From Patescibacteria group bacterium (GTDB lineage Bacteria > Patescibacteriota > Patescibacteriia > UBA10025 > JAHIVO01): a stretch of DNA of 64,000 nt. The notes under the pieces are model-generated. The model was not told where the DNA came from and did no database searches. It saw nothing but the letters and a program-made list of their open reading frames with translations. The DNA is taken from the NCBI GenBank assembly GCA_049325535.1, contig JBMOKY010000001.1:93002-157001 (forward strand), read 5' to 3'. Both the position numbers and the translations under genes were made by a program. Below, in pieces: positions 1,785-58,224 of the stretch (within the stretch, counting starts at the first letter, position 1; every line of letters starts with the position of its first letter).

Positions 1785-4700
1785 CTATTGGGTACACCAG
1801 GAATGTGCATTTTGGAACATCGTGAGCCACGGCGAGGCGTCCAGTCCCTGCAGTTTGGATGGCAGCCAGTGCCATTGCCAGAGTTTGAATGCCCGCTCCG
1901 GATGAGGCATCATGGCGAGGTGCCGACCATCCGGCGAGCAGAGTCCAGCAATGCCGCCCGGGGAGCCATTCGGATTGAATGGATACTGTTCAGTCGGTTG
2001 GCCGTCCCCGTCGACATAGAACAGGGGTGCCAGACCGTTTTCAATGACATGGCGCATCACTTCCGGATCAGGAAAGTAAGCACGACCTTCACCATGGGCT
2101 ACGGGGACGCCGAATGTCGAGCCTGCCATGCCCTGCAGCATGATGGCCGGACTCTCCGGAATGGTCACTGCCACCCAGCGAGAGTCGAACCGCCGTGAGT
2201 GGTTGCGGATGAACCGCGGCTGTTGCTCTGCCGGCAGGCCAGCCAGTGGCACGATTCCAGCTAACGTCATCCATTGGCATCCATTGCAGACGCCGAGGGA
2301 GAATGTGTCAGTCCGGGTGAAGAAGTCATCGAACATCTTGAGTAATGTTGGATTGCATCGGATGCTCATCGCCCAACCCTTACCAGCATCCAGGACATCG
2401 GCATAGGAGAATCCGCCGACAATGGCCATGCCGCGGAATCGACTGAAGTCAGTCAGGCGGCCATTGAGCAGGTCGGTCATGGTGACATCCCATGGCCTGA
2501 AACCTGCCAGGTGAAACGCCGACGTCATCTCACGATCACCGTTGCTTCCCTCTTCACGCAGGATGATTACCTCCGGTTTGTCATCCCGATCAAGGATTGT
2601 CGCCGGCGTTTTTTTCGGAGTGAATGTCAGCTGGTAGTCAGCAGGTAGTTTGCCGTGATTGGCAGTTTGCTGCTTGGCAACCCGGTGATCCATCTGTTCC
2701 AGCTCGAGCCGGTCGCTGGTCGCTTCCCACCATCGCAGAACGGTGTCGGTATCCACATCCAGGACGTTTTCCGTACCCTGGCGGCAGATGATCCGACGTT
2801 CGGTAGTAGTGTGGCCAAGTATAGTTACTGACAGACCGGTCAGTTCATGCAGCACATCTGCCTCGTTTTCCGGCAGGTATTCGATCACCGCGCCGGCCTC
2901 TTCAGCAAACAGCTGATCAAGAGCAGCGCGTTGGTCATCCAGTCCGATACGTAGCCCGCACCAGCCCGACAGAGCCATCTCTACCAGCGTCGTGATGAGA
3001 CCCCCGTCGCTGATGTCATGGCCGGCCAGGATGCGACCGTGACTGATGAGGCGCTGGATCGATTGAAACATGGCGACGAGCATTTCTGGATGTTCAATAT
3101 CCGGGCACTCATCACCAATCTGTCCCAGGCTCTGGGCAAAGGCACTGCCACCGAGACGACATGCGCCATCACCTAGATCAATATACAGAAGCTTTGATCT
3201 GCCTGGCATCTTGATGTCAGGCGTCACTTTCTTCGTAATATCGTCCATGGTGGCATAAGCGGAGACGACCATGGTGCCCGGTGACTTAACCAGTTCATCG
3301 CCGACCATGGAGGACATTGACAGACTGTCTTTGCCGCCATCGGCTGCGATGCCACAAGTGATCATGGTGTCGGCCATGGCTTGGGCCGCGTCGACCAGCC
3401 GGGCGCCTTCGCCAGGCAGCTTCGCTGCCCACATCCAATTGACCGATGACTTGATGTCCACCAATCCACTCAGTCGGGCGAATACGATGTTCGTCAAGGC
3501 TTCGGCCACGGACATACGGGCACCAGCTTCCGGATCCACCAGCATTTTGATCGGTTGTTCACCGATGCTGGTAGCTCCGCCAACCAGTTCAAAATGGCTC
3601 ATCGCCATGACACCGTAGTCAGCCACCGGCAATTGGAGCGGACCACAGCATTGCTGCTGGCCGACCAGACCGGTGACGCTGCGATCTACTTTGTTTGTCA
3701 GGTTTGTCTTCGATCCCACACTTGGCAAACGCAGTACATCGCACAGTGCCTCGGCAATACCCAGATTCGACGGGATAGCCAGCGGCTTGAGTTTCCGTGG
3801 TATACGTTCCAGCTGGAACGTTTTTTGCGGAATACCGCTGAGCGTTTTGGCCAGTTCCAGATCGACCGGTATCGAGCCGGTACGGTCATTCACGACCACC
3901 ACGCGCCCATCACCGGTGATCTCGCCGACCACGTCACATGGTACCTTTTCCCGTTTGCAGATTGCCCGGAAGTCGTCAATTCGGTTAGCCCGTATCAACA
4001 ATCCGTAGCTCTCCTGGAATTCAGCGCACCATATCTCCACATCGGCCAAGGTCTGATCGCCCAAAGTGATGCGATCCAGATGGATGCGGCCTCCTGCCGG
4101 GTCCACCAGTTCGCTCAGTACATTGGACGGGCCGCCGGCACCCTGGTCATGGATACTAGCAATCGGATTGTCAGCTTCCAGTTCTACACAGGCACGGATG
4201 ACGCGGAAAGTCTTCTGTCCCATTTCCGCATCACCACGCTGGACAGAGTCAAATTCCAGTTTGAGGTCCTGGTTTACACCAGAAGCCATACTGGACATGG
4301 CGCCGCCGCCGAACCCGATCCGGTAGGCCGGTCCGCCGATGCGGACGATGAGCATACCGGGTTCGGGCGCCTCCTTCTGCAGGTGCGTGTCGCTGATCAG
4401 GCCGATGCCGCCGGTGAACAGAATGGGTTTGATATACTCGCACCGTTCACCGCCGGGTAGACGTTGGCCGAAGCTACGGCAAAATCCCACAATCAGCGGC
4501 TCGCCGTACTTATTGCCGTAATCCTTGGCTCCGTAAGAGCCTTGAGTGATCACGCTGAGCGGCGTTTCATACTGTGGTGGGTAGTCAAACGTTCGGTCTT
4601 CGCCGGGGATATGGTAGTCAGATAGGTTGAGGCAACCGAAGGCATAGCCCACGGTAGCCGCCACCGTTAGTGACCCGCGTCCGGTCGCGTTATTATCCCG

Positions 4701-5591
4701 CTCCCGTCCGCCGGTACCCGTTTCTGCGCCTGCAAAACACGCCACCAGTGTCGGCCAGTTATGCGTTTCCGCCGTAAAGACCAGGTGGTAGGTACGTTGT
4801 TGTCGGGAAAACGGTGAGCAGGTGCCCGGATGCTCAGGAATGATCGTCCAGACCGTATACCCTTTGATGGCGCTAGAGTTGTCGCCAAAGGCGATGACAC
4901 TGTTGCCAGGATTCGCTTCCAGCGTTGACTTGATGATCTGCATCAGGGTACGAGGTACGGGCATCCCGTCAATCATCAAGCGACCCCTAAAAAACGGATG
5001 TCGAGAATGCTCGCTGTTTTTCTGAGCCAGGTCGAACAGTTCGACATTGGTCGGATTGCGCTGGTAGACACGGACAAACAGGTCGAAATAGAATTTCATA
5101 TCCTGCTCGTCGAATGATAGTCCCATTTCCCGGTTGACCCGGATCAGTTCCGCCATACCCTTTTCCATCAGCGGGATGGCATAGGTCTGGGCCGGTTTTG
5201 CGCCGCTGTCAAAGGTGGCGAGCGGGTTGGGATAGGCGCATTCCGTCATCCGGTCATGGCGCTGGGCAATGAAGTCCGCGTCCGTTATTCCGTCAGGGAC
5301 GACGTACCGCCGTGAGCGTTCCAGCCGAGTAATGGCGGTCAGACCGCAGGCGTGGCAGATGGCGACCGCATTGGTTGAGAAGGCTGTTTCAAAGTTGAGG
5401 CGCGGACCGACTTCAATGATGCGCCGGTTTGTGCCGTCCAGCAGGGAGCGTTCGCCGAATTGTTCCGGTTCAAACGTCTCCGCCAGGATCAACCTGAGGG
5501 TTGCCATCTCATCAGTCGTCAGGGGGCGACTTGTTTCAATATTGAAACAATACTCGAACCCTGGTTCAATGCGTCTGAACATTTTGTTCAC
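1785..5591 (-). CDS. purL: phosphoribosylformylglycinamidine (FGAM) synthase, large single-chain type
   Basis: The 1268-aa ORF is in the size range of single-chain FGAM synthase (about 1295 aa in E. coli) and has the C-terminal glutamine amidotransferase motif GVCNGCQ, an established PurL feature. A GTG start at 5591 is preceded by AAGGAGG 7 nt upstream. Confidence 0.9.
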   Translation of the reverse strand: MNKMFRRIEPGFEYCFNIETSRPLTTDEMATLRLILAETFEPEQFGERSLLDGTNRRIIEVGPRLNFETAFSTNAVAICHACGLTAITRLERSRRYVVPDGITDADFIAQRHDRMTECAYPNPLATFDSGAKPAQTYAIPLMEKGMAELIRVNREMGLSFDEQDMKFYFDLFVRVYQRNPTNVELFDLAQKNSEHSRHPFFRGRLMIDGMPVPRTLMQIIKSTLEANPGNSVIAFGDNSSAIKGYTVWTIIPEHPGTCSPFSRQQRTYHLVFTAETHNWPTLVACFAGAETGTGGRERDNNATGRGSLTVAATVGYAFGCLNLSDYHIPGEDRTFDYPPQYETPLSVITQGSYGAKDYGNKYGEPLIVGFCRSFGQRLPGGERCEYIKPILFTGGIGLISDTHLQKEAPEPGMLIVRIGGPAYRIGFGGGAMSSMASGVNQDLKLEFDSVQRGDAEMGQKTFRVIRACVELEADNPIASIHDQGAGGPSNVLSELVDPAGGRIHLDRITLGDQTLADVEIWCAEFQESYGLLIRANRIDDFRAICKREKVPCDVVGEITGDGRVVVVNDRTGSIPVDLELAKTLSGIPQKTFQLERIPRKLKPLAIPSNLGIAEALCDVLRLPSVGSKTNLTNKVDRSVTGLVGQQQCCGPLQLPVADYGVMAMSHFELVGGATSIGEQPIKMLVDPEAGARMSVAEALTNIVFARLSGLVDIKSSVNWMWAAKLPGEGARLVDAAQAMADTMITCGIAADGGKDSLSMSSMVGDELVKSPGTMVVSAYATMDDITKKVTPDIKMPGRSKLLYIDLGDGACRLGGSAFAQSLGQIGDECPDIEHPEMLVAMFQSIQRLISHGRILAGHDISDGGLITTLVEMALSGWCGLRIGLDDQRAALDQLFAEEAGAVIEYLPENEADVLHELTGLSVTILGHTTTERRIICRQGTENVLDVDTDTVLRWWEATSDRLELEQMDHRVAKQQTANHGKLPADYQLTFTPKKTPATILDRDDKPEVIILREEGSNGDREMTSAFHLAGFRPWDVTMTDLLNGRLTDFSRFRGMAIVGGFSYADVLDAGKGWAMSIRCNPTLLKMFDDFFTRTDTFSLGVCNGCQWMTLAGIVPLAGLPAEQQPRFIRNHSRRFDSRWVAVTIPESPAIMLQGMAGSTFGVPVAHGEGRAYFPDPEVMRHVIENGLAPLFYVDGDGQPTEQYPFNPNGSPGGIAGLCSPDGRHLAMMPHPERAFKLWQWHWLPSKLQGLDASPWLTMFQNAHSWCTQ

Positions 5592-5745: not shown

Positions 5746-7233
5746 CTAGGCACAGAGCCGGGCCACTAACTGGTCGTGCGGGAAATCCCGTTCACAGTAG
5801 TGGCAGCGGCAGACTGAGCCGGGCGTACTCCGATCGAGCACCCGGAAGATGGTAGCCGCCTCGGGGTCGGCATTGGTGATACAGCTGCTATTCAGGCAGC
5901 GGAACACACCGAAGACGTGGGAGGGGATGTGGAAGCGTTTCTTCAGCTGGGTTTCATTGCCCGGGAATTCATTGATGGTGATTTCCGGGAAGATGAATTG
6001 GAGCGTGGCCGCCGCGACGTCGGGAAGCGTGATACCCGAGAGCAACATCACATCTTTCAGCCCCTCGTATTTGCGGGAGCGCACCAACTGCACCAGCTGC
6101 CGCGGATGGTTGTCGCCGATGGAGGTCAGCTGTTCCAACAGATGGAGGGCGGCAATCGCTCGATTCGGAGGAAGATGATCGATGACGGTTCCCGTCGTGA
6201 TCGGCTGGAAGTGCTTGACCGGTTTGCCCCGGTCTTCGATGCGGATGCTTTCGGCATTGATCAGCAGATCGGCATCATGCCGTGGGCGGCCGATACCTAC
6301 GAATGGATTGAGCAGCGCCCGGGCGATGAGCGCCATGCGAGTGGGGATGCCGTAGCGGGCCTGTTCAAAAGCCACCATGCGCGGATCGTTTTTGATGTCC
6401 GGATCGATCTCCTCGACTGAGGGAAGCGGGTGCATCACGATCACATCGGGTTTGCATATGTCAAGGAATTTCTTGTTGAACACGTACGTACCCTGTACCG
6501 CCAGACGCAGCGCCACATCAGCGATGCGTTCCAGCTGGAACCTGGTCACATAGATCACGTCGCATTCCTTGAGCGCCTCCATGGACTCACTCTCGCACAC
6601 GACATTGATACCTGCCTTGTACTGTGACAGCATTTCCGCGCCTTTTGGCGCCACCAGGGTAACCCTGATATTTTCGAAATGCCGCAGTGCCTGTATCAGC
6701 GAGACAGCGGTCCGGCCGTTTGCCAGATCGCCGACCAGGCCGATATGCAGATTATCGAGCCGTCCTTTTTTGATCAGGATGGTGAGCAAGTCGAGCATGG
6801 TCTGGGTCGGATGCTGGTTCCGGCCGTCACCGCCATTCAGGACGGTGACCTCCCGACCGTAATCCTCCAGCACTTCGGCCATCCACCGCGCTCCACCCTC
6901 CAGACCTGAGCGCAGCACCAGCACGTCCGCTCCCTGGTCAGCCAGCATCCGGGCCGTGTCGGCAAAACTCTCTTTCTTGACCAGCGAGGTGCCCTCGGCT
7001 CCCGAGATCTGGTGCGTCCGCATCATCAGATTCAGCATCGCTTGCATGAATGAGCCGAGAGTTCGCGTGCTCGGTTCCAGGAACAGCAGAGTTCCTTTTT
7101 TGGTAGGAAATCCGGTCGGGGCGGAGCGGGCAAGGGCATAGGGAACCATCTTTTGCCCGGCGACTACCATGTCATGAATGGATGCGCCGTCGGGGAAATC
7201 ATTGGTGCTCAAGATGTGTGAATAGGGATACAT
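5746..7233 (-). CDS. pyrB: aspartate carbamoyltransferase catalytic chain fused in-frame to regulatory chain (PyrB-PyrI single polypeptide)
   Basis: The N-terminal ~320 aa carry ATCase motifs EPSTRT, NGGDGRNQHPTQ and HPLP. After a ~40-aa linker the C-terminal ~160 aa align to PyrI: GTVIDHLPP matches E. coli GTVIDHIPA, and the Zn motif CLNSSCITNADPE...CRCHYCERDF matches CPNSNCISHAEP...CKYCEKEF. Confidence 0.85.
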   Translation of the reverse strand: MYPYSHILSTNDFPDGASIHDMVVAGQKMVPYALARSAPTGFPTKKGTLLFLEPSTRTLGSFMQAMLNLMMRTHQISGAEGTSLVKKESFADTARMLADQGADVLVLRSGLEGGARWMAEVLEDYGREVTVLNGGDGRNQHPTQTMLDLLTILIKKGRLDNLHIGLVGDLANGRTAVSLIQALRHFENIRVTLVAPKGAEMLSQYKAGINVVCESESMEALKECDVIYVTRFQLERIADVALRLAVQGTYVFNKKFLDICKPDVIVMHPLPSVEEIDPDIKNDPRMVAFEQARYGIPTRMALIARALLNPFVGIGRPRHDADLLINAESIRIEDRGKPVKHFQPITTGTVIDHLPPNRAIAALHLLEQLTSIGDNHPRQLVQLVRSRKYEGLKDVMLLSGITLPDVAAATLQFIFPEITINEFPGNETQLKKRFHIPSHVFGVFRCLNSSCITNADPEAATIFRVLDRSTPGSVCRCHYCERDFPHDQLVARLCA

Positions 7234-23906: not shown

Positions 23907-23982
23907 GCTCGTATAGCTCAGCGGTTAGAGCACCACTCTTATAAAGTGGGGGTCGATGGTTCAAATCCATCTACGAGCACCA
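23907..23982 (+). tRNA. tRNA-Ile, anticodon UAU (reads AUA), CCA encoded
   Basis: The sequence folds as a canonical cloverleaf: GCTCGTA TA GCTC AGCGGTTA GAGC A CCACT CTTATAA AGTGG GGGTC GATGG TTCAAAT CCATC TACGAGC A CCA. U33 and A37 are present and the anticodon at positions 34-36 is TAT. Confidence 0.8.
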
Positions 23983-54216: not shown

Positions 54217-57200
54217 ATGGCTAGTCAGTATCATCATCAGGAAGTGGAGCGCCGGTGGCAGCAGGCCTGGGAAAGGGATGGCGTCTTTCGGGTGTCTGAC
54301 GATCAGCTGGTCAATCCGCAGTATGTCCTAGACATGTTTCCCTATCCGTCAGCCCAGGGGCTACATGTCGGGCACCCAGAAGGCTATACCGCGTCCGACA
54401 TTTACGCGCGTTTTTTGCGCGCCCGGGGCAAGTCCGTACTGCACCCGATGGGGTTTGATTCATTCGGTCTGCCCGCAGAGAATTATGCCATCAAAACCGG
54501 CACCCACCCGGCAAAAACCACCGCGGACAATATCGAAAACATGCGCCGGCAGATCAAAAGTCTGGGGTTTTCCTATGACTGGGAGCGAGAAGTCATCACC
54601 TCTGATCCGAAGTATTATCAATGGACGCAGTGGATTTTTATTCAATTATTTAAACACGGACTGGCCTACGAGGCTGACGCGCCGATCAACTGGTGCCCAA
54701 AGGATAAGACCGGCCTGGCCAATGAAGAAGTCGTTGACGGCAAATGCGAACGCTGCGGCGCTGCGGTGACCAAGAAGCAGATCAAACAGTGGCTGGTCAA
54801 GATCACTGATGAAAAATATATTGAGCGGCTATTGCACGGCCTCGACGATCTCGACTGGCCAGAGTCGATCAAGACGTTGCAGCGAAACTGGATTGGGCGG
54901 AGCGAAGGAGCGGAGATACAATTTCCAATTTCCAATTCTCAAATTCCAAAAAAATCTAAAGCATCAAATGTAAATTCTCAAAACAACAACCCGGTTATTA
55001 CCGTTTTTACCACCCGACCGGACACACTATTCGGCGCGACGTACATGGTGCTGTCACCGGAACATGAATTAGTTGACGCGATTACGACTGACAAGCAGCG
55101 GAAAGCAGTTGACCAGTATAAAAAAGAAGCGGCGGCAAAATCAGATCTGGAGCGGACCGATTTAGCGAAAGATAAGACGGGGGTATTTACCGGCGCGTAT
55201 GCTATCAATCCGGCTACTCATAAAAAAATTCCCATATGGATTGCTGACTATGTGTTGAGTAGTTATGGCACCGGCGCCATCATGGCCGTGCCGGCGCACG
55301 ATGAACGGGATCACGCCTTTGCGCAGAAATATACATTGCCGATCATCCAGGTCATCAAACCTCCGCGCGTCATGCCAAAGATGAGTCCGCCGCTCGGGAG
55401 CGCGGCCGCCTGGGGGATGCAGGACAGCGATGTGGAGTACACGTGCTGGACAGGTGATGGAGAGATGGTGAATTCAGGTGAATTTGATGGCATGGACTCA
55501 GTGGAATTCAAGAAAAAAATAGTTGCATGGCTGGCCCATAAAAGTGCTGGGAGAACTTGTCTGGTTATTCACGGGTTGAGCGGACATAAACGGGAGAATT
55601 GGTTCCCCTGGCTCAAGGATGAATTGAAAAAGCGCGGTTGGAATCCCATCGTACCGACCATGCCAGGCGCTGGGCATCCGACGCAGGATGGTTGGGAAAA
55701 GGAAATGGCCACGCATGATCAGGAAATCAATGAGCGTTCGTTTCTTGTAGGACATAGTCTGGGTTGTGCGGCTATTCTCTATCATTTACAGCAGAAAGGT
55801 CAGCAGGTGGATACCGTGATTTTGGTGGCGCCGACGAATCCTTTACAGAAATGGGAGCAGCTTAAAAAAAATCATCCGAGCGCCGATTGGGACGCGGTCA
55901 TGAGCATGAATCAGGAAGGTGCGTATGATTGGCAGAAAATAAAATCACTGGCTCGGCGCTTTGTCATAGTGTATTCAGATAATGATCCGTACGTTGATCA
56001 GGAGAGTATTGAATACTACAAGTTACATTTGCCAGAAGCTGAATATCACCTCTATCCAGGCAAGTCGCATTTCAGCGAAACGACCGGCGGTATCACCGCA
56101 TTGCCTGAGATACTGCAGTTTTTCCCACTGGAGCCTCTGGCCAAGGTGGCGATCAACTACAAACTCCGCGATTGGCTGTTTAGCCGCCAGCGGTATTGGG
56201 GCGAACCGATTCCGATTGTCCACTGTGAGCAGTGTAAAGAGAATGTGGAATCAACACCGTGGATTTTACATTTCTATGAAACGCCATTTCGTAAAATTCT
56301 CAGTGGTGAAAAAACAATTGAGACGCGCGCGCTCAATCCTGATGAACCAGACCGTTATTTCGCTGATATTCAAGCAGGCGATGTCATCAAGGGTGTGTTG
56401 AAAGGTACAAATGAATCATTGTATCTGCGAGTTACGAAACAATATCAGTTCAGAAATCTCGAAGAGTTTCACCAGCACAGAGATTTACTCGGGAAGCTGC
56501 GGGCACATTTTGATCCCACGCTCGAGGAGCTGAAGGAGTTTTATGCGCTCACACCCGACTATGTAGACCGAATCCAAAAAAACGGCTTAGTTGCCTGGGA
56601 GTTTATTCGTATACAGCCAGGGCAGGTGCCCGTTCCTGAGGATCAACTCCCGCTGGAATTACCCGACGTGGAGAAATACGAACCCACCGGTACCGGGCAG
56701 TCCCCGCTGGCCGCCATTACCGACTGGGTGAATACCACCTGCCCGGAGTGCGGCGGATCAGCCAAGCGCGAGACTAATACGATGCCCCAGTGGGCTGGAT
56801 CAAACTGGTATTTTCTCCGCTATTGCGATCCGCACAATGATACCCAACTGGCCGATCCTGAGAAATTAAAAAAATGGTTGCCGGTAAATATGTACATCGG
56901 TGGCGCAGAGCACGCGGTGCTTCATTTACTGTACGCACGGTTTATCTATATGTTCCTCTATGATATTGGTACAGTACCGCAGGAATGCGGTGAGGAGCCG
57001 TTTATCGTTCTCAAGAACCAAGGCCTAATCATGGGTGAAGACGGGCAGAAGATGTCGAAGTCGCGGGGGAATGTGATCAATCCCGATGACGTGGTGCGAG
57101 AGTATGGCGCGGACGTCCTGCGCATGTACGAGATGTTCATGGGGCCGTTTGAAGACGCCAAGCCATGGAGCACGCAGGGGATTGTCGGTGTACGGCGGTT

Positions 57201-57699
57201 TGTGGAGAAGGTATGGGAGTCACGGAAAAAAATTTCCACTGAGGATATTGAGGAACCGATGATCATGCATCAGACGATACGATCCGTCACTGAAAAAATT
57301 CCCGCATTCCGGTTTAATACGTGTATAAGTGATCTGATGAAATGGAGCAATGCGTGGGGCGAGCATATTGGTAAGAACGAATTTACTACATTCTTGAAAA
57401 TATTAGCCCCTTTCGCACCGCATTTGGCGCAGGAATTGTGGTATCAGCTTGGCCACGATGGGTATATTGAAAAAGAGCCGTGGCCGACGTTTGATAAATC
57501 AAAAATAGTGGAAACCGAAACAACCTATGCCGTACAAGTCAATGGCAAGCTGCGCGATATGATTACCGTAACCGCCGGAACCGAAGAAGCTGACGTGGTG
57601 TCTGCCGCTCGTGCCAGCGAGAAAGTCGACAAACATCTGACCGGCGAACCGAGGAAAACGATTTTTGTGAAAGACAAACTGGTGAATTTTGTCGGTTGA
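54217..57699 (+). CDS. leuS: leucine--tRNA ligase with two inserted accessory domains (alpha/beta serine hydrolase; ASCH)
   Basis: HVGH (HIGH), KMSKS, CP1 editing region and LRDWLFSRQRYWGEPIP are all present. The ORF is 1160 aa against about 805 aa for typical bacterial LeuRS, the excess coming from in-frame insertions at aa ~447-641 and ~677-803. Confidence 0.9.
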   Translation: MASQYHHQEVERRWQQAWERDGVFRVSDDQLVNPQYVLDMFPYPSAQGLHVGHPEGYTASDIYARFLRARGKSVLHPMGFDSFGLPAENYAIKTGTHPAKTTADNIENMRRQIKSLGFSYDWEREVITSDPKYYQWTQWIFIQLFKHGLAYEADAPINWCPKDKTGLANEEVVDGKCERCGAAVTKKQIKQWLVKITDEKYIERLLHGLDDLDWPESIKTLQRNWIGRSEGAEIQFPISNSQIPKKSKASNVNSQNNNPVITVFTTRPDTLFGATYMVLSPEHELVDAITTDKQRKAVDQYKKEAAAKSDLERTDLAKDKTGVFTGAYAINPATHKKIPIWIADYVLSSYGTGAIMAVPAHDERDHAFAQKYTLPIIQVIKPPRVMPKMSPPLGSAAAWGMQDSDVEYTCWTGDGEMVNSGEFDGMDSVEFKKKIVAWLAHKSAGRTCLVIHGLSGHKRENWFPWLKDELKKRGWNPIVPTMPGAGHPTQDGWEKEMATHDQEINERSFLVGHSLGCAAILYHLQQKGQQVDTVILVAPTNPLQKWEQLKKNHPSADWDAVMSMNQEGAYDWQKIKSLARRFVIVYSDNDPYVDQESIEYYKLHLPEAEYHLYPGKSHFSETTGGITALPEILQFFPLEPLAKVAINYKLRDWLFSRQRYWGEPIPIVHCEQCKENVESTPWILHFYETPFRKILSGEKTIETRALNPDEPDRYFADIQAGDVIKGVLKGTNESLYLRVTKQYQFRNLEEFHQHRDLLGKLRAHFDPTLEELKEFYALTPDYVDRIQKNGLVAWEFIRIQPGQVPVPEDQLPLELPDVEKYEPTGTGQSPLAAITDWVNTTCPECGGSAKRETNTMPQWAGSNWYFLRYCDPHNDTQLADPEKLKKWLPVNMYIGGAEHAVLHLLYARFIYMFLYDIGTVPQECGEEPFIVLKNQGLIMGEDGQKMSKSRGNVINPDDVVREYGADVLRMYEMFMGPFEDAKPWSTQGIVGVRRFVEKVWESRKKISTEDIEEPMIMHQTIRSVTEKIPAFRFNTCISDLMKWSNAWGEHIGKNEFTTFLKILAPFAPHLAQELWYQLGHDGYIEKEPWPTFDKSKIVETETTYAVQVNGKLRDMITVTAGTEEADVVSAARASEKVDKHLTGEPRKTIFVKDKLVNFVG

Positions 57700-57732: not shown

Positions 57733-58224
57733 ATGACCCCGACTATTGATTTCATCTATAATTACGAATACGCCAAACGGATTCAGGGTCTGAACGACGA
57801 GCTGTTCGCTGATCCATGGCAGCGCATCATCCGCATCGGCGGGGATTTCGAGAAATTGTTTGATTCCCGTCTCGGCCGGATTCTGGAATTAGTCAGCCGG
57901 TACTCTGGGTACGAGTGGGACGCGCAGACTGATGCGTACATTCCGGTGTATATGATCGGTGCCGCTCCATCATTTGTCCAGCCGCTGTCGCTGGCCGTCG
58001 ATGAAGACGCTGAGGCGATGCTGACCGATTGTATCTACCAGTTGGCGCATCGCAATATGCATGTTGGTTTTCCCAGTGATGATGCCCGGCATCGGATGGT
58101 TACGGCGGTGACCGCCCATGTGCTGCGGGAACTCGGGGCAGAAACAGAACCGTCGCAGTTTGATCTGAATAAAAATCCAGCTAAACATTATATAGAATCA
58201 TCGCATGGACATCGTACGCATTGA
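57733..58224 (+). CDS. hypothetical protein
   Basis: 163-aa ORF; no family recognised. Confidence 0.45.
   Translation: MTPTIDFIYNYEYAKRIQGLNDELFADPWQRIIRIGGDFEKLFDSRLGRILELVSRYSGYEWDAQTDAYIPVYMIGAAPSFVQPLSLAVDEDAEAMLTDCIYQLAHRNMHVGFPSDDARHRMVTAVTAHVLRELGAETEPSQFDLNKNPAKHYIESSHGHRTH

Follow-up and report, generated by a model that had tools for sequence, protein, structure and literature searches.

The window analyzed here, a 64,000-nucleotide stretch of contig JBMOKY010000001.1 from a Patescibacteria group bacterium (assembly GCA_049325535.1), carries on its forward strand a leuS gene (54217–57699) encoding a bacterial-type leucyl-tRNA synthetase (LeuRS) of 1160 residues (plus stop), in which two foreign domains are inserted in frame. 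The first-pass annotation, made from the letters of the DNA, had reported both the uninterrupted open reading frame (ORF) and the two insertions, and the alignments described below bear it out. The exact protein is present in NCBI as MFZ6035670.1, encoded on a 1.15-Mb Patescibacteria contig. Scanned as a whole, it scores 984.5 bits against TIGR00396 (leuS_bact), the curated equivalog cutoff of which is 548.4; its Pfam matches include tRNA-synt_1, the LeuRS editing domain PF13603 and Anticodon_1, and its best solved relative is the Thermus thermophilus LeuRS (Tt; PDB code: 1H3N, E = 3e-204). The landmarks of the host enzyme, all on the forward strand, are (i) the HIGH-type signature HVGH of the class I catalytic site (54364–54375, residues 50–53), which aligns with HMGH in Tt; (ii) the connective peptide 1 (CP1) editing domain (54883–55533, residues 223–439; PF13603, E = 2.3e-63), with an intact T-rich motif TTRPDT (55009–55026, residues 265–270) and an intact HDxRD motif, AHDERD (55294–55311, residues 360–365); (iii) a segment comprising the CP1 C-terminal β-linker and part of the core (56149–56235, residues 645–673), which aligns with Tt 410–442 and ends in the first CxxC (C670, C673) of the Cys4 knuckle; (iv) the second CxxC of this knuckle (CPEC, C842/C845; 56740–56751), which aligns with CPKC in Tt; (v) the KMSKS catalytic loop (57049–57063, residues 945–949); and (vi) the anticodon-binding domain (57265–57591, residues 1017–1125; PF08264, E = 2.5e-16). 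Altogether, to judge from its sequence, this LeuRS is complete, with its catalytic and editing motifs all intact, and presumably functional.

The boundaries of the inserts were defined by alignment to Tt LeuRS, which yields four collinear blocks, among them residues 4–446 (Tt 3–412), 641–673 (Tt 410–442) and 802–941 (Tt 443–580). Insert 1 (198 residues, 447–644; 55555–56148, forward strand) lies between Tt K412 and G413, that is, at the C-terminal hinge of CP1 and just ahead of the β-linker, at a position referred to below as hotspot s414; it is flanked by the end of CP1 and by the β-linker sequence AINYKLRDW. Insert 2 (128 residues, 674–801; 56236–56619, forward strand; hotspot s443) falls exactly between Tt C442 and G443, after the first CxxC of the CxxC...CxxC knuckle, so that it is nested in this knuckle. 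The junctions read GR/TCLV...LAKV/AINY for insert 1 and CEQC/KENV...IQP/GQVP for insert 2, and the host sequence is continuous across both sites, with no host residue missing at either junction in the Tt alignment. The span singled out by the first-pass annotation, 55555–56625, begins with the codon for T447, where insert 1 starts, and ends two codons beyond insert 2, and the motifs it quoted are found as it gave them: KIVAWLAHKSAGR (residues 434–446), LVIHGLSGH (449–457), GHSLG (512–516), AINYKLRDW (645–653), CEQC (670–673), ILSGEKTIETR (694–704), DIQAGDVI (717–724) and VPVPEDQLP (804–812).

Insert 1 belongs to the YdeN/RBBP9 family of α/β serine hydrolases. Scanned alone, it matches PF06821 (Ser_hydrolase) with E = 3e-19 and 70 bits (gathering score 22) over positions 2–167 of a 172-position model; it also aligns with Bacillus subtilis YdeN (PDB code: 1UXO) with E = 1.2e-14, over residues 8–179 of 192, and with human RBBP9 with E = 3e-5. 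The G-x-S-x-G nucleophile elbow is present as GHSLG (55750–55764), with the predicted catalytic Ser514, and the triad is completed by Asp590 (55984–55986) and His618 (56068–56070), all on the forward strand. Across the hydrolase inserts embedded in LeuRSs, the serine is conserved in 40 of 40 sequences, the histidine in all 38 that could be scored and the aspartate in at least 90%. The full-length AlphaFold2 (AF2) model arranges insert 1 in the strand, nucleophile-elbow, helix order of α/β hydrolases, with a mean predicted local distance difference test score (pLDDT) of about 75; this topology, of moderate confidence, and the alignment to the YdeN structure together describe a compact α/β-hydrolase fold. 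Taken with the Pfam and YdeN matches, the triad bears out the RBBP9/YdeN-like assignment that had been proposed by eye. Among near-identical assemblies the insert differs by only 3–4 substitutions, and its conservation suggests that it is under purifying selection. To our knowledge, YdeN itself has no known substrate. In human RBBP9, single Leu/Ile, Met, Phe, Tyr or Trp residues are trapped as acyl intermediates on the active-site serine, for which a free α-amine is required, and this α-aminoacyl (aminopeptidase/esterase) activity is the only one characterized in the hydrolase family (PMC8866121). By analogy, such chemistry would also suit aminoacyl esters such as aminoacyl-tRNA.

Insert 2 is an ASCH-fold domain. 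PF04266 (ASCH) is its top Pfam match but stays below the gathering score (18.6 versus 21.2 bits), and a match at E ≤ 0.01 is obtained for only 3 of the 27 family members of this insert type; sequence searches of NCBIfam and of the PDB with insert 2 returned nothing meaningful. Of the two Pfam assignments anticipated for the inserts, PF06821 is thus reached above its cutoff, and PF04266 is the best match but falls short of it. The fold is nevertheless the PUA-like β-barrel of ASCH domains (the ASCH structures listed under insert 2 are 3S9X, 1T62, 1XNE, 3IUW and ZmASCH), and insert 2 is modeled with a mean pLDDT of about 92. Its octapeptide, G697-E-K699-T-I-E702-T-R704 (56305–56328, forward strand), conforms to the ASCH pattern G-x-K-x-x-[ET]-x-R; the G, K, E and R residues (G697, K699, E702 and R704) are invariant in 27 of 27 family members, the octapeptide of which reads G-x-K-T-x-E-x-R. 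Lys699 and Glu702 correspond to the catalytic dyad of TthASCH, K23/E26. The first-pass annotation was therefore right at the level of the fold when it called insert 2 a YqfB-like ASCH domain, but not as to the subgroup: the sixth octapeptide position, a threonine in YqfB (Thr24, 'GKTR' type), is here an invariant glutamate (E702), as in the 'GKER' type of TthASCH. In a recent preprint (10.64898/2026.02.27.708502), the Lys and Glu of the 'GKER' subgroup are essential for the removal of N4-acetylcytidine (ac4C) from tRNA by TthASCH, YqfB is assigned to the separate 'GKTR' subgroup, 19 ASCH proteins, some with one octapeptide type and some with the other, are reported to remove ac4C from tRNA, and YqfB-type ASCH enzymes act on free N4-acylcytidine nucleosides. 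Between the window gene and a 91%-identical ortholog (L002), omega is 0.094 for insert 2 and 0.091 for the rest of the gene: purifying selection on insert 2 is equal to that on the host.

Could an artefact, either a chimeric contig or separate genes read as one, account for this architecture? The genome was assembled from a metagenome, and the G+C content of both inserts is slightly below that of their flanks. Against this, two other, independent assemblies (Logan SRR28264341 and SRR8357215) have the same in-frame architecture at the syntenic locus, in the order LysM/M23 peptidase, leuS, a 163-residue ORF, Sua5 and RsmA, with inserts that differ from those of the window by 0–2 residues; the agreement of three assemblies rules out a chimera. 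In addition, the host sequence runs on across the junctions, and the insertion sites are common to dozens of homologs. We therefore regard the chance of an artefact as negligible. In the structure prediction that the first-pass annotation had called for, both inserts are folded; this full-length AF2 model has a mean pLDDT of 87.2, a predicted template modeling score of 0.80 and a LeuRS core at about 90.

The comparison with related LeuRSs, also proposed at the outset, shows that many Patescibacteria homologs share the inserts. We aligned the 120 best LeuRS homologs and extracted their non-core segments, counting as an insert any segment of at least 40 residues. At least one insert is present in 63 of the 85 closest homologs (where named, the source of the sequences is Patescibacteria or Kerfeldbacteria), and the spirochaete-type LeuRSs lower in the list have none. 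The inserts fall at a few hotspots. Ser_hydrolase domains (40 inserts) occur at s239 (start of CP1), s366 (inside CP1, after HDxRD), s414 (end of CP1) and s443 (after HCxxC), with sharp, distinct boundaries and, in some proteins, in two copies; the 130-residue ASCH domains of the insert 2 type (28) occur at s443 only, NUDIX domains (19) at s366, Ham1/ITPase domains (6) at s239, and Pfam-positive ASCH domains with the YqfB-type octapeptide G-x-K-x-x-T-x-R (2) also at s239. Several types can meet in one polypeptide: a LeuRS of 1296 residues (P0006) has a YqfB-type ASCH domain at s239, a GKER-type one at s443 and a Ser_hydrolase at s414, and one of 1554 residues (P0084) has five inserts. A hydrolase of the s414 clade that seemed to sit at s443 in one homolog (P0033) proved to be misaligned, its true site being s414. 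The CP1 editing motifs (T-rich and HDxRD) are conserved in 119 of the 120 homologs; therefore, the hydrolase is no substitute for an editing site that was lost, and the idea that it makes up for a degenerate CP1 was discarded.

The position of insert 1 exactly at the CP1 hinge invites a reading in which the inserts serve a dedicated, cis-acting quality control of tRNA-Leu. The hydrolase would then offer a second site, based on an α/β-hydrolase, for post-transfer editing, at which Ile, Met or norvaline is removed from mischarged tRNA-Leu while the CCA end shuttles between the synthetic and CP1 sites, and the ASCH domain would be a checkpoint at which a modification of the bound tRNA-Leu is read or erased. 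The trapping of Leu/Ile and Met acyl intermediates by RBBP9, with its need for a free α-amine, the deacetylation of tRNA by ASCH proteins and the fact that the hosts are aminoacyl-tRNA synthetases (aaRSs) fit this reading. However, a hydrolase family found at four LeuRS sites, sometimes twice in one protein, has no conserved geometry, and CP1 motifs that are intact in nearly all hosts leave nothing to be replaced. The further observations below, namely a syntenic ortholog without any inserts and the presence of the same ASCH subfamily in synthetases with other substrates, also count against it, and we consider it improbable.

The insert content of leuS is patchy on the tree of host cores, and the closest relatives of the window gene differ from it by precise in-frame indels. 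The window LeuRS has the hydrolase at s414 and the ASCH domain at s443; its closest relative, the syntenic ortholog L002 (91% core identity), has a 184-residue hydrolase at s239 and the ASCH domain at s443; and two other syntenic orthologs (L003 and L004, 83% core identity) have no inserts. The DNA identity between the window and L002 is 99–100% over the first 75 codons and 90–95% at the 3' end, drops to 60–73% just downstream of s239 and drops again beside s414. Downstream of s239, the window is closer to the insert-free L003 (81–89%) than to L002, and the residues immediately before insert 1 are like those of other hosts with a hydrolase at s414 and not like those of L002. In a further locus (L005:1501–5070), leuS contains both inserts, nearly identical to those of the window, together with a divergent anticodon-binding segment that is 29 residues longer. 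These identity swings around the hotspots, the upstream residues shared with the s414 hosts and the C-terminal segment of L005 indicate that leuS is a recombination mosaic. The s414 insert is kept at 62–66% identity in hosts with 62–73% identical cores. By all these sequence signs, the insert-bearing segments behave as exchangeable cassettes, passed between related leuS alleles by homologous recombination, and the insert content consequently turns over faster than the host protein diverges.

Three further features of the leuS locus are worth recording. At s239, the window protein has a low-complexity linker, NSQIPKKSKASNVNSQNNNPV (54934–54996, forward strand; residues 240–260; pLDDT 62–65 in the full-length model), rich in Asn, Ser and Lys; a similar linker is present in the insert-free L003, and L002 has its 184-residue hydrolase there. 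This linker might mark a landing pad or be the scar of a deletion. A gene for a DUF559/MTES_1575 protein (93 residues, Vsr-like endonuclease domain) lies just downstream of the insert-free leuS (L003:5852–6133 and L004:4416–4697) and is absent from the window and L002 loci. Finally, the 163-residue ORF directly downstream of leuS (57733–58224, forward strand), which has no Pfam hit and overlaps the start of the Sua5/YrdC gene, is syntenic in all five related loci.

A patchy distribution, conserved sites in essential genes and a homing-like spread by recombination are also what might be expected of non-functional passengers, i.e. remnants of insertions, selfish or neutral in origin (degenerate cassettes of an intein-like or mobile kind), that decay in permissive loops. 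Yet the junctions lack an N-terminal Cys/Ser, a C-terminal His-Asn and the +1 residue of inteins, and no Hint or intein Pfam match and no homing-endonuclease domain was found; the absence of intein termini had already been remarked on in the first-pass annotation, and inteins are ruled out. So is a transposon-like insertion: no terminal inverted repeats or target-site duplication are present in 55400–56800, a region in which the repeat search returned only two weak internal repeats. The invariant catalytic residues, an omega of 0.09 and the confidently predicted folds weigh further against decaying relics. The conservation data thus strongly disfavor passengers of this kind, to which we assign only a very small probability. 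A role in anti-phage defense was likewise set aside, there being no PADLOC hits; PHROGs matches were weak, to 'RNA-binding protein' for insert 2 and to an esterase for insert 1.

Both domain families reach well beyond LeuRS. A profile search with the hydrolase inserts retrieves thousands of free-standing proteins of about 185 residues from candidate phyla radiation (CPR) bacteria and DPANN archaea, the nearest free-standing relative of the hydrolase (P0149) being 48% identical. The ASCH subfamily of insert 2 is much smaller, with only 227 clusters among 1.84 billion representative proteins, and is largely embedded in aaRSs. The host tally comes from a single profile search, seeded from the LeuRS inserts, of which the best 150 of the 227 hits were inspected; in these, hosts of at least 400 residues with a full-length match are all aaRSs but one. 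The same ASCH subfamily is found in ValRS-type class Ia synthetases that also bear a nested histidine-phosphatase domain, His_Phos_1 (P0279, P0280, P0292, P0293, P0311 and P0330) or, in its place, Ser_hydrolase (P0282), in a class II synthetase of the Asp/Lys/Asn type, and in an AlaRS-like protein of 1287 residues (P0298) that combines ASCH, guanylate kinase, Ham1/ITPase and Ser_hydrolase in one polypeptide. It also occurs in free-standing proteins of 103–132 residues, one of which (P0134) was verified as a separate gene with unrelated neighbors, and in small fusions of ASCH with NUDIX, Ser_hydrolase, GNAT or GDPD domains. In the 282-residue fusion P0290, the partner is a GNAT acetyltransferase domain, and the protein could be an acetyl 'eraser–writer' pair.

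These free-standing and fused forms bring up the main rival explanation, pure hitch-hiking, according to which the inserts are housekeeping enzymes without a translation-related substrate, involved in nucleotide or nucleoside pool sanitation and in small-molecule ester hydrolysis, and are nested in aaRSs, the CP regions of which tolerate insertions, solely because an essential gene under constitutive expression offers them co-expression and gene economy in a streamlined genome. Several observations agree with it: free-standing versions are abundant; NUDIX, ITPase, guanylate kinase and histidine phosphatase domains occur as sister cassettes; some small proteins consist of such domains fused to one another, with no aaRS; inserts are rapidly gained and lost, one ortholog being free of them; and YqfB-type ASCH enzymes use free N4-acylcytidine nucleosides. 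In addition, aaRSs are preferred hosts for domain insertion in general (PMC13114784). On the other hand, nearly all hosts in the inspected hits are aaRSs, from class I as well as class II; the other large proteins of the window (the essential PurL, GyrA, FtsH, IF-2 and RNase Y, and a ComM-like protein) have ordinary architectures without inserts; and the characterized activities of both families concern aminoacyl bonds or tRNA. A purely random hitch-hike is not the best fit, since the observed hosts are almost all synthetases; we see this explanation as unlikely, though it is the one to be reckoned with first.

The reading we favor, at about an even chance, is that the inserts are active, synthetase-tethered clean-up enzymes, accessory modules nested in LeuRS that act on tRNA-linked or aminoacyl substrates. 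As far as sequence can tell, they are two complete, autonomous enzyme domains, placed at surface or hinge positions and with their catalytic residues kept, and both are members of a set of small hydrolase domains (Ser-hydrolase, ASCH, NUDIX, Ham1/ITPase, His-phosphatase) that are, in Patescibacteria, free-standing, fused together or nested at a few hotspots in several aaRSs. The synthetase would serve as a tether and a co-expression vehicle, and the substrates of the inserts, reached in trans or loosely in cis, would be those that collect near synthetases. By analogy with their relatives, the ASCH domain may be an N4-acylcytidine amidohydrolase, may erase ac4C from tRNA or may at least serve to bind RNA, and the serine hydrolase may cleave α-aminoacyl esters or amides, for instance aminoacyl-tRNA that is stray or mis-acylated, or similar aminoacyl esters. 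The inserts would not be obligatory in the leucine-specific catalytic cycle: a leucine-specific step with a fixed geometry is unlikely, because the cassettes occupy several sites and several synthetases and are lacking in close orthologs.

Several points weigh against active tethered enzymes with such substrates. The substrate assignments are extrapolated from distant relatives (21–23% identity to ASCH structures and E = 3e-5 for RBBP9); the residues of RBBP9 that bind the α-amine could not be mapped reliably onto insert 1; the guanylate kinase, ITPase and NUDIX domains of the sister architectures are explained no less well by housekeeping of the nucleotide pool, with no relation to tRNA; and the apparent restriction of hosts to aaRSs is that of one LeuRS-seeded search over its best 150 hits. 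A bolder version can be put forward, in which the aaRSs of Patescibacteria serve as a platform on which recombination shuffles nested enzyme cassettes (Ser-hydrolase, ASCH, NUDIX, ITPase, His-phosphatase and guanylate kinase), and in which these cassettes make up an unrecognized modular layer of translation-linked quality control. In the window LeuRS, the hydrolase would then provide an extra, editing-like site for aminoacyl esters and the ASCH domain an eraser of tRNA N4-acylcytidine, both working on the tRNA that visits the synthetase. We regard this version as rather doubtful.

The first-pass annotation knew of no described precedent for such a synthetase. The window protein is not a one-off, as dozens of Patescibacteria LeuRSs and other aaRSs have similar inserts; the part of the claim that holds is that we found no published description. 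In the full-text literature searched, no aaRS with a nested YdeN-type hydrolase, ASCH, NUDIX or ITPase domain, and no cassette-like turnover of such domains, is described. Nesting small hydrolase domains in tRNA synthetases, and exchanging them through recombination, is thus apparently an undescribed habit of Patescibacteria. Eukaryotic synthetases are well known for accessory domains, which are attached to the termini and for the most part lack a catalytic function. The bacterial synthetases described here enclose whole catalytic domains, which recur at particular hotspots in numerous combinations and are swapped from allele to allele; accessory domains on synthetases are already known in kind, and what appears to be new is the nesting of YdeN-type, ASCH, NUDIX and ITPase domains with cassette turnover. 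Should tRNA or aminoacyl esters prove to be their substrates, the inserts would be a new kind of editing or demodification module, would place the orphan YdeN/RBBP9 family in a physiological context and would supply the newly proposed ASCH 'ac4C eraser' activity with a natural partner in tRNA handling. As mere passengers, they would still illustrate a striking gene economy in ultra-small genomes and would offer a natural catalog of permissive insertion sites for aaRS engineering. Either way, automatic annotation conceals these nested-domain synthetases, whose database label is plain 'leucine--tRNA ligase' or, wrongly and after an insert, 'alpha/beta fold hydrolase' or 'non-canonical purine NTP pyrophosphatase'.

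Other features of the window lie apart from leuS. A 495-residue ORF on the reverse strand (5746–7233) fuses the catalytic (OTCace_N, OTCace) and regulatory (PyrI, PyrI_C) chains of aspartate carbamoyltransferase, pyrB and pyrI being normally two separate genes, and a large-type PurL (formylglycinamide ribonucleotide amidotransferase) of 1268 residues is encoded at 1785–5591, also on the reverse strand. Together, PurL and the PyrB–PyrI fusion suggest that parts of de novo purine and pyrimidine synthesis are kept in this Patescibacterium, pathways that CPR bacteria are in general considered to be without. Finally, ARAGORN calls a tRNA-Ile with anticodon TAT (UAU) at 23907–23982 (forward strand), which would read AUA directly and not via a lysidine-modified CAU tRNA.

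How does the window LeuRS compare with known systems? It shares with canonical bacterial LeuRSs (T. thermophilus, 1H3N/2BYT; E. coli, 4AQ7/4ARC) the full class Ia feature set, namely HIGH, KMSKS, the ZN1 region, CP1 with TTRPDT and HDxRD, and the CxxC...CxxC knuckle, as well as the anticodon-binding and C-terminal domains. It differs from them by 326 extra residues, i.e. two nested foreign enzyme domains, and from Thermus LeuRS by the absence of the large leucine-specific domain (Tt 581–636). Insert 1 matches YdeN (1UXO), RBBP9 (2QS9/7OEX) and PF06821 end to end, as an α/β-hydrolase of about 190 residues with the same G-H-S-x-G elbow and Ser-Asp-His triad; however, YdeN and RBBP9 are free-standing, whereas the window domain is nested within another enzyme, and its identity to RBBP9 is low. 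Compared to the ASCH superfamily (PH0355, 2Z0T; TthASCH, 2DP9; YqfB, 9KYF; ZmASCH, 5GUQ), insert 2 scores below the Pfam gathering threshold, and its subfamily is set apart from the ASCH structures by a conserved extension, ...R-A-L-N-P-[DE]-E..R-[YF]-F-G. Another class Ia synthetase that has, to judge by its name, an unrelated enzyme domain is NCBIfam NF040702 ('isoleucine--tRNA ligase, N-acetyltransferase domain-containing'); its extra domain is a GNAT and not a Ser-hydrolase or an ASCH domain, the window protein scores 48.6 bits against its cutoff of 1999, and the family does not imply nesting of several domain families at several sites or cassette turnover. The free-standing trans-editing factors AlaX, YbaK/ProX and DTD are demonstrated aminoacyl-tRNA deacylases. 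They embody the same concept, an extra hydrolase that clears wrongly acylated tRNA beside the synthetase's own editing site, but have folds unrelated to that of the hydrolase embedded in LeuRS, for which such an activity is here proposed by analogy.

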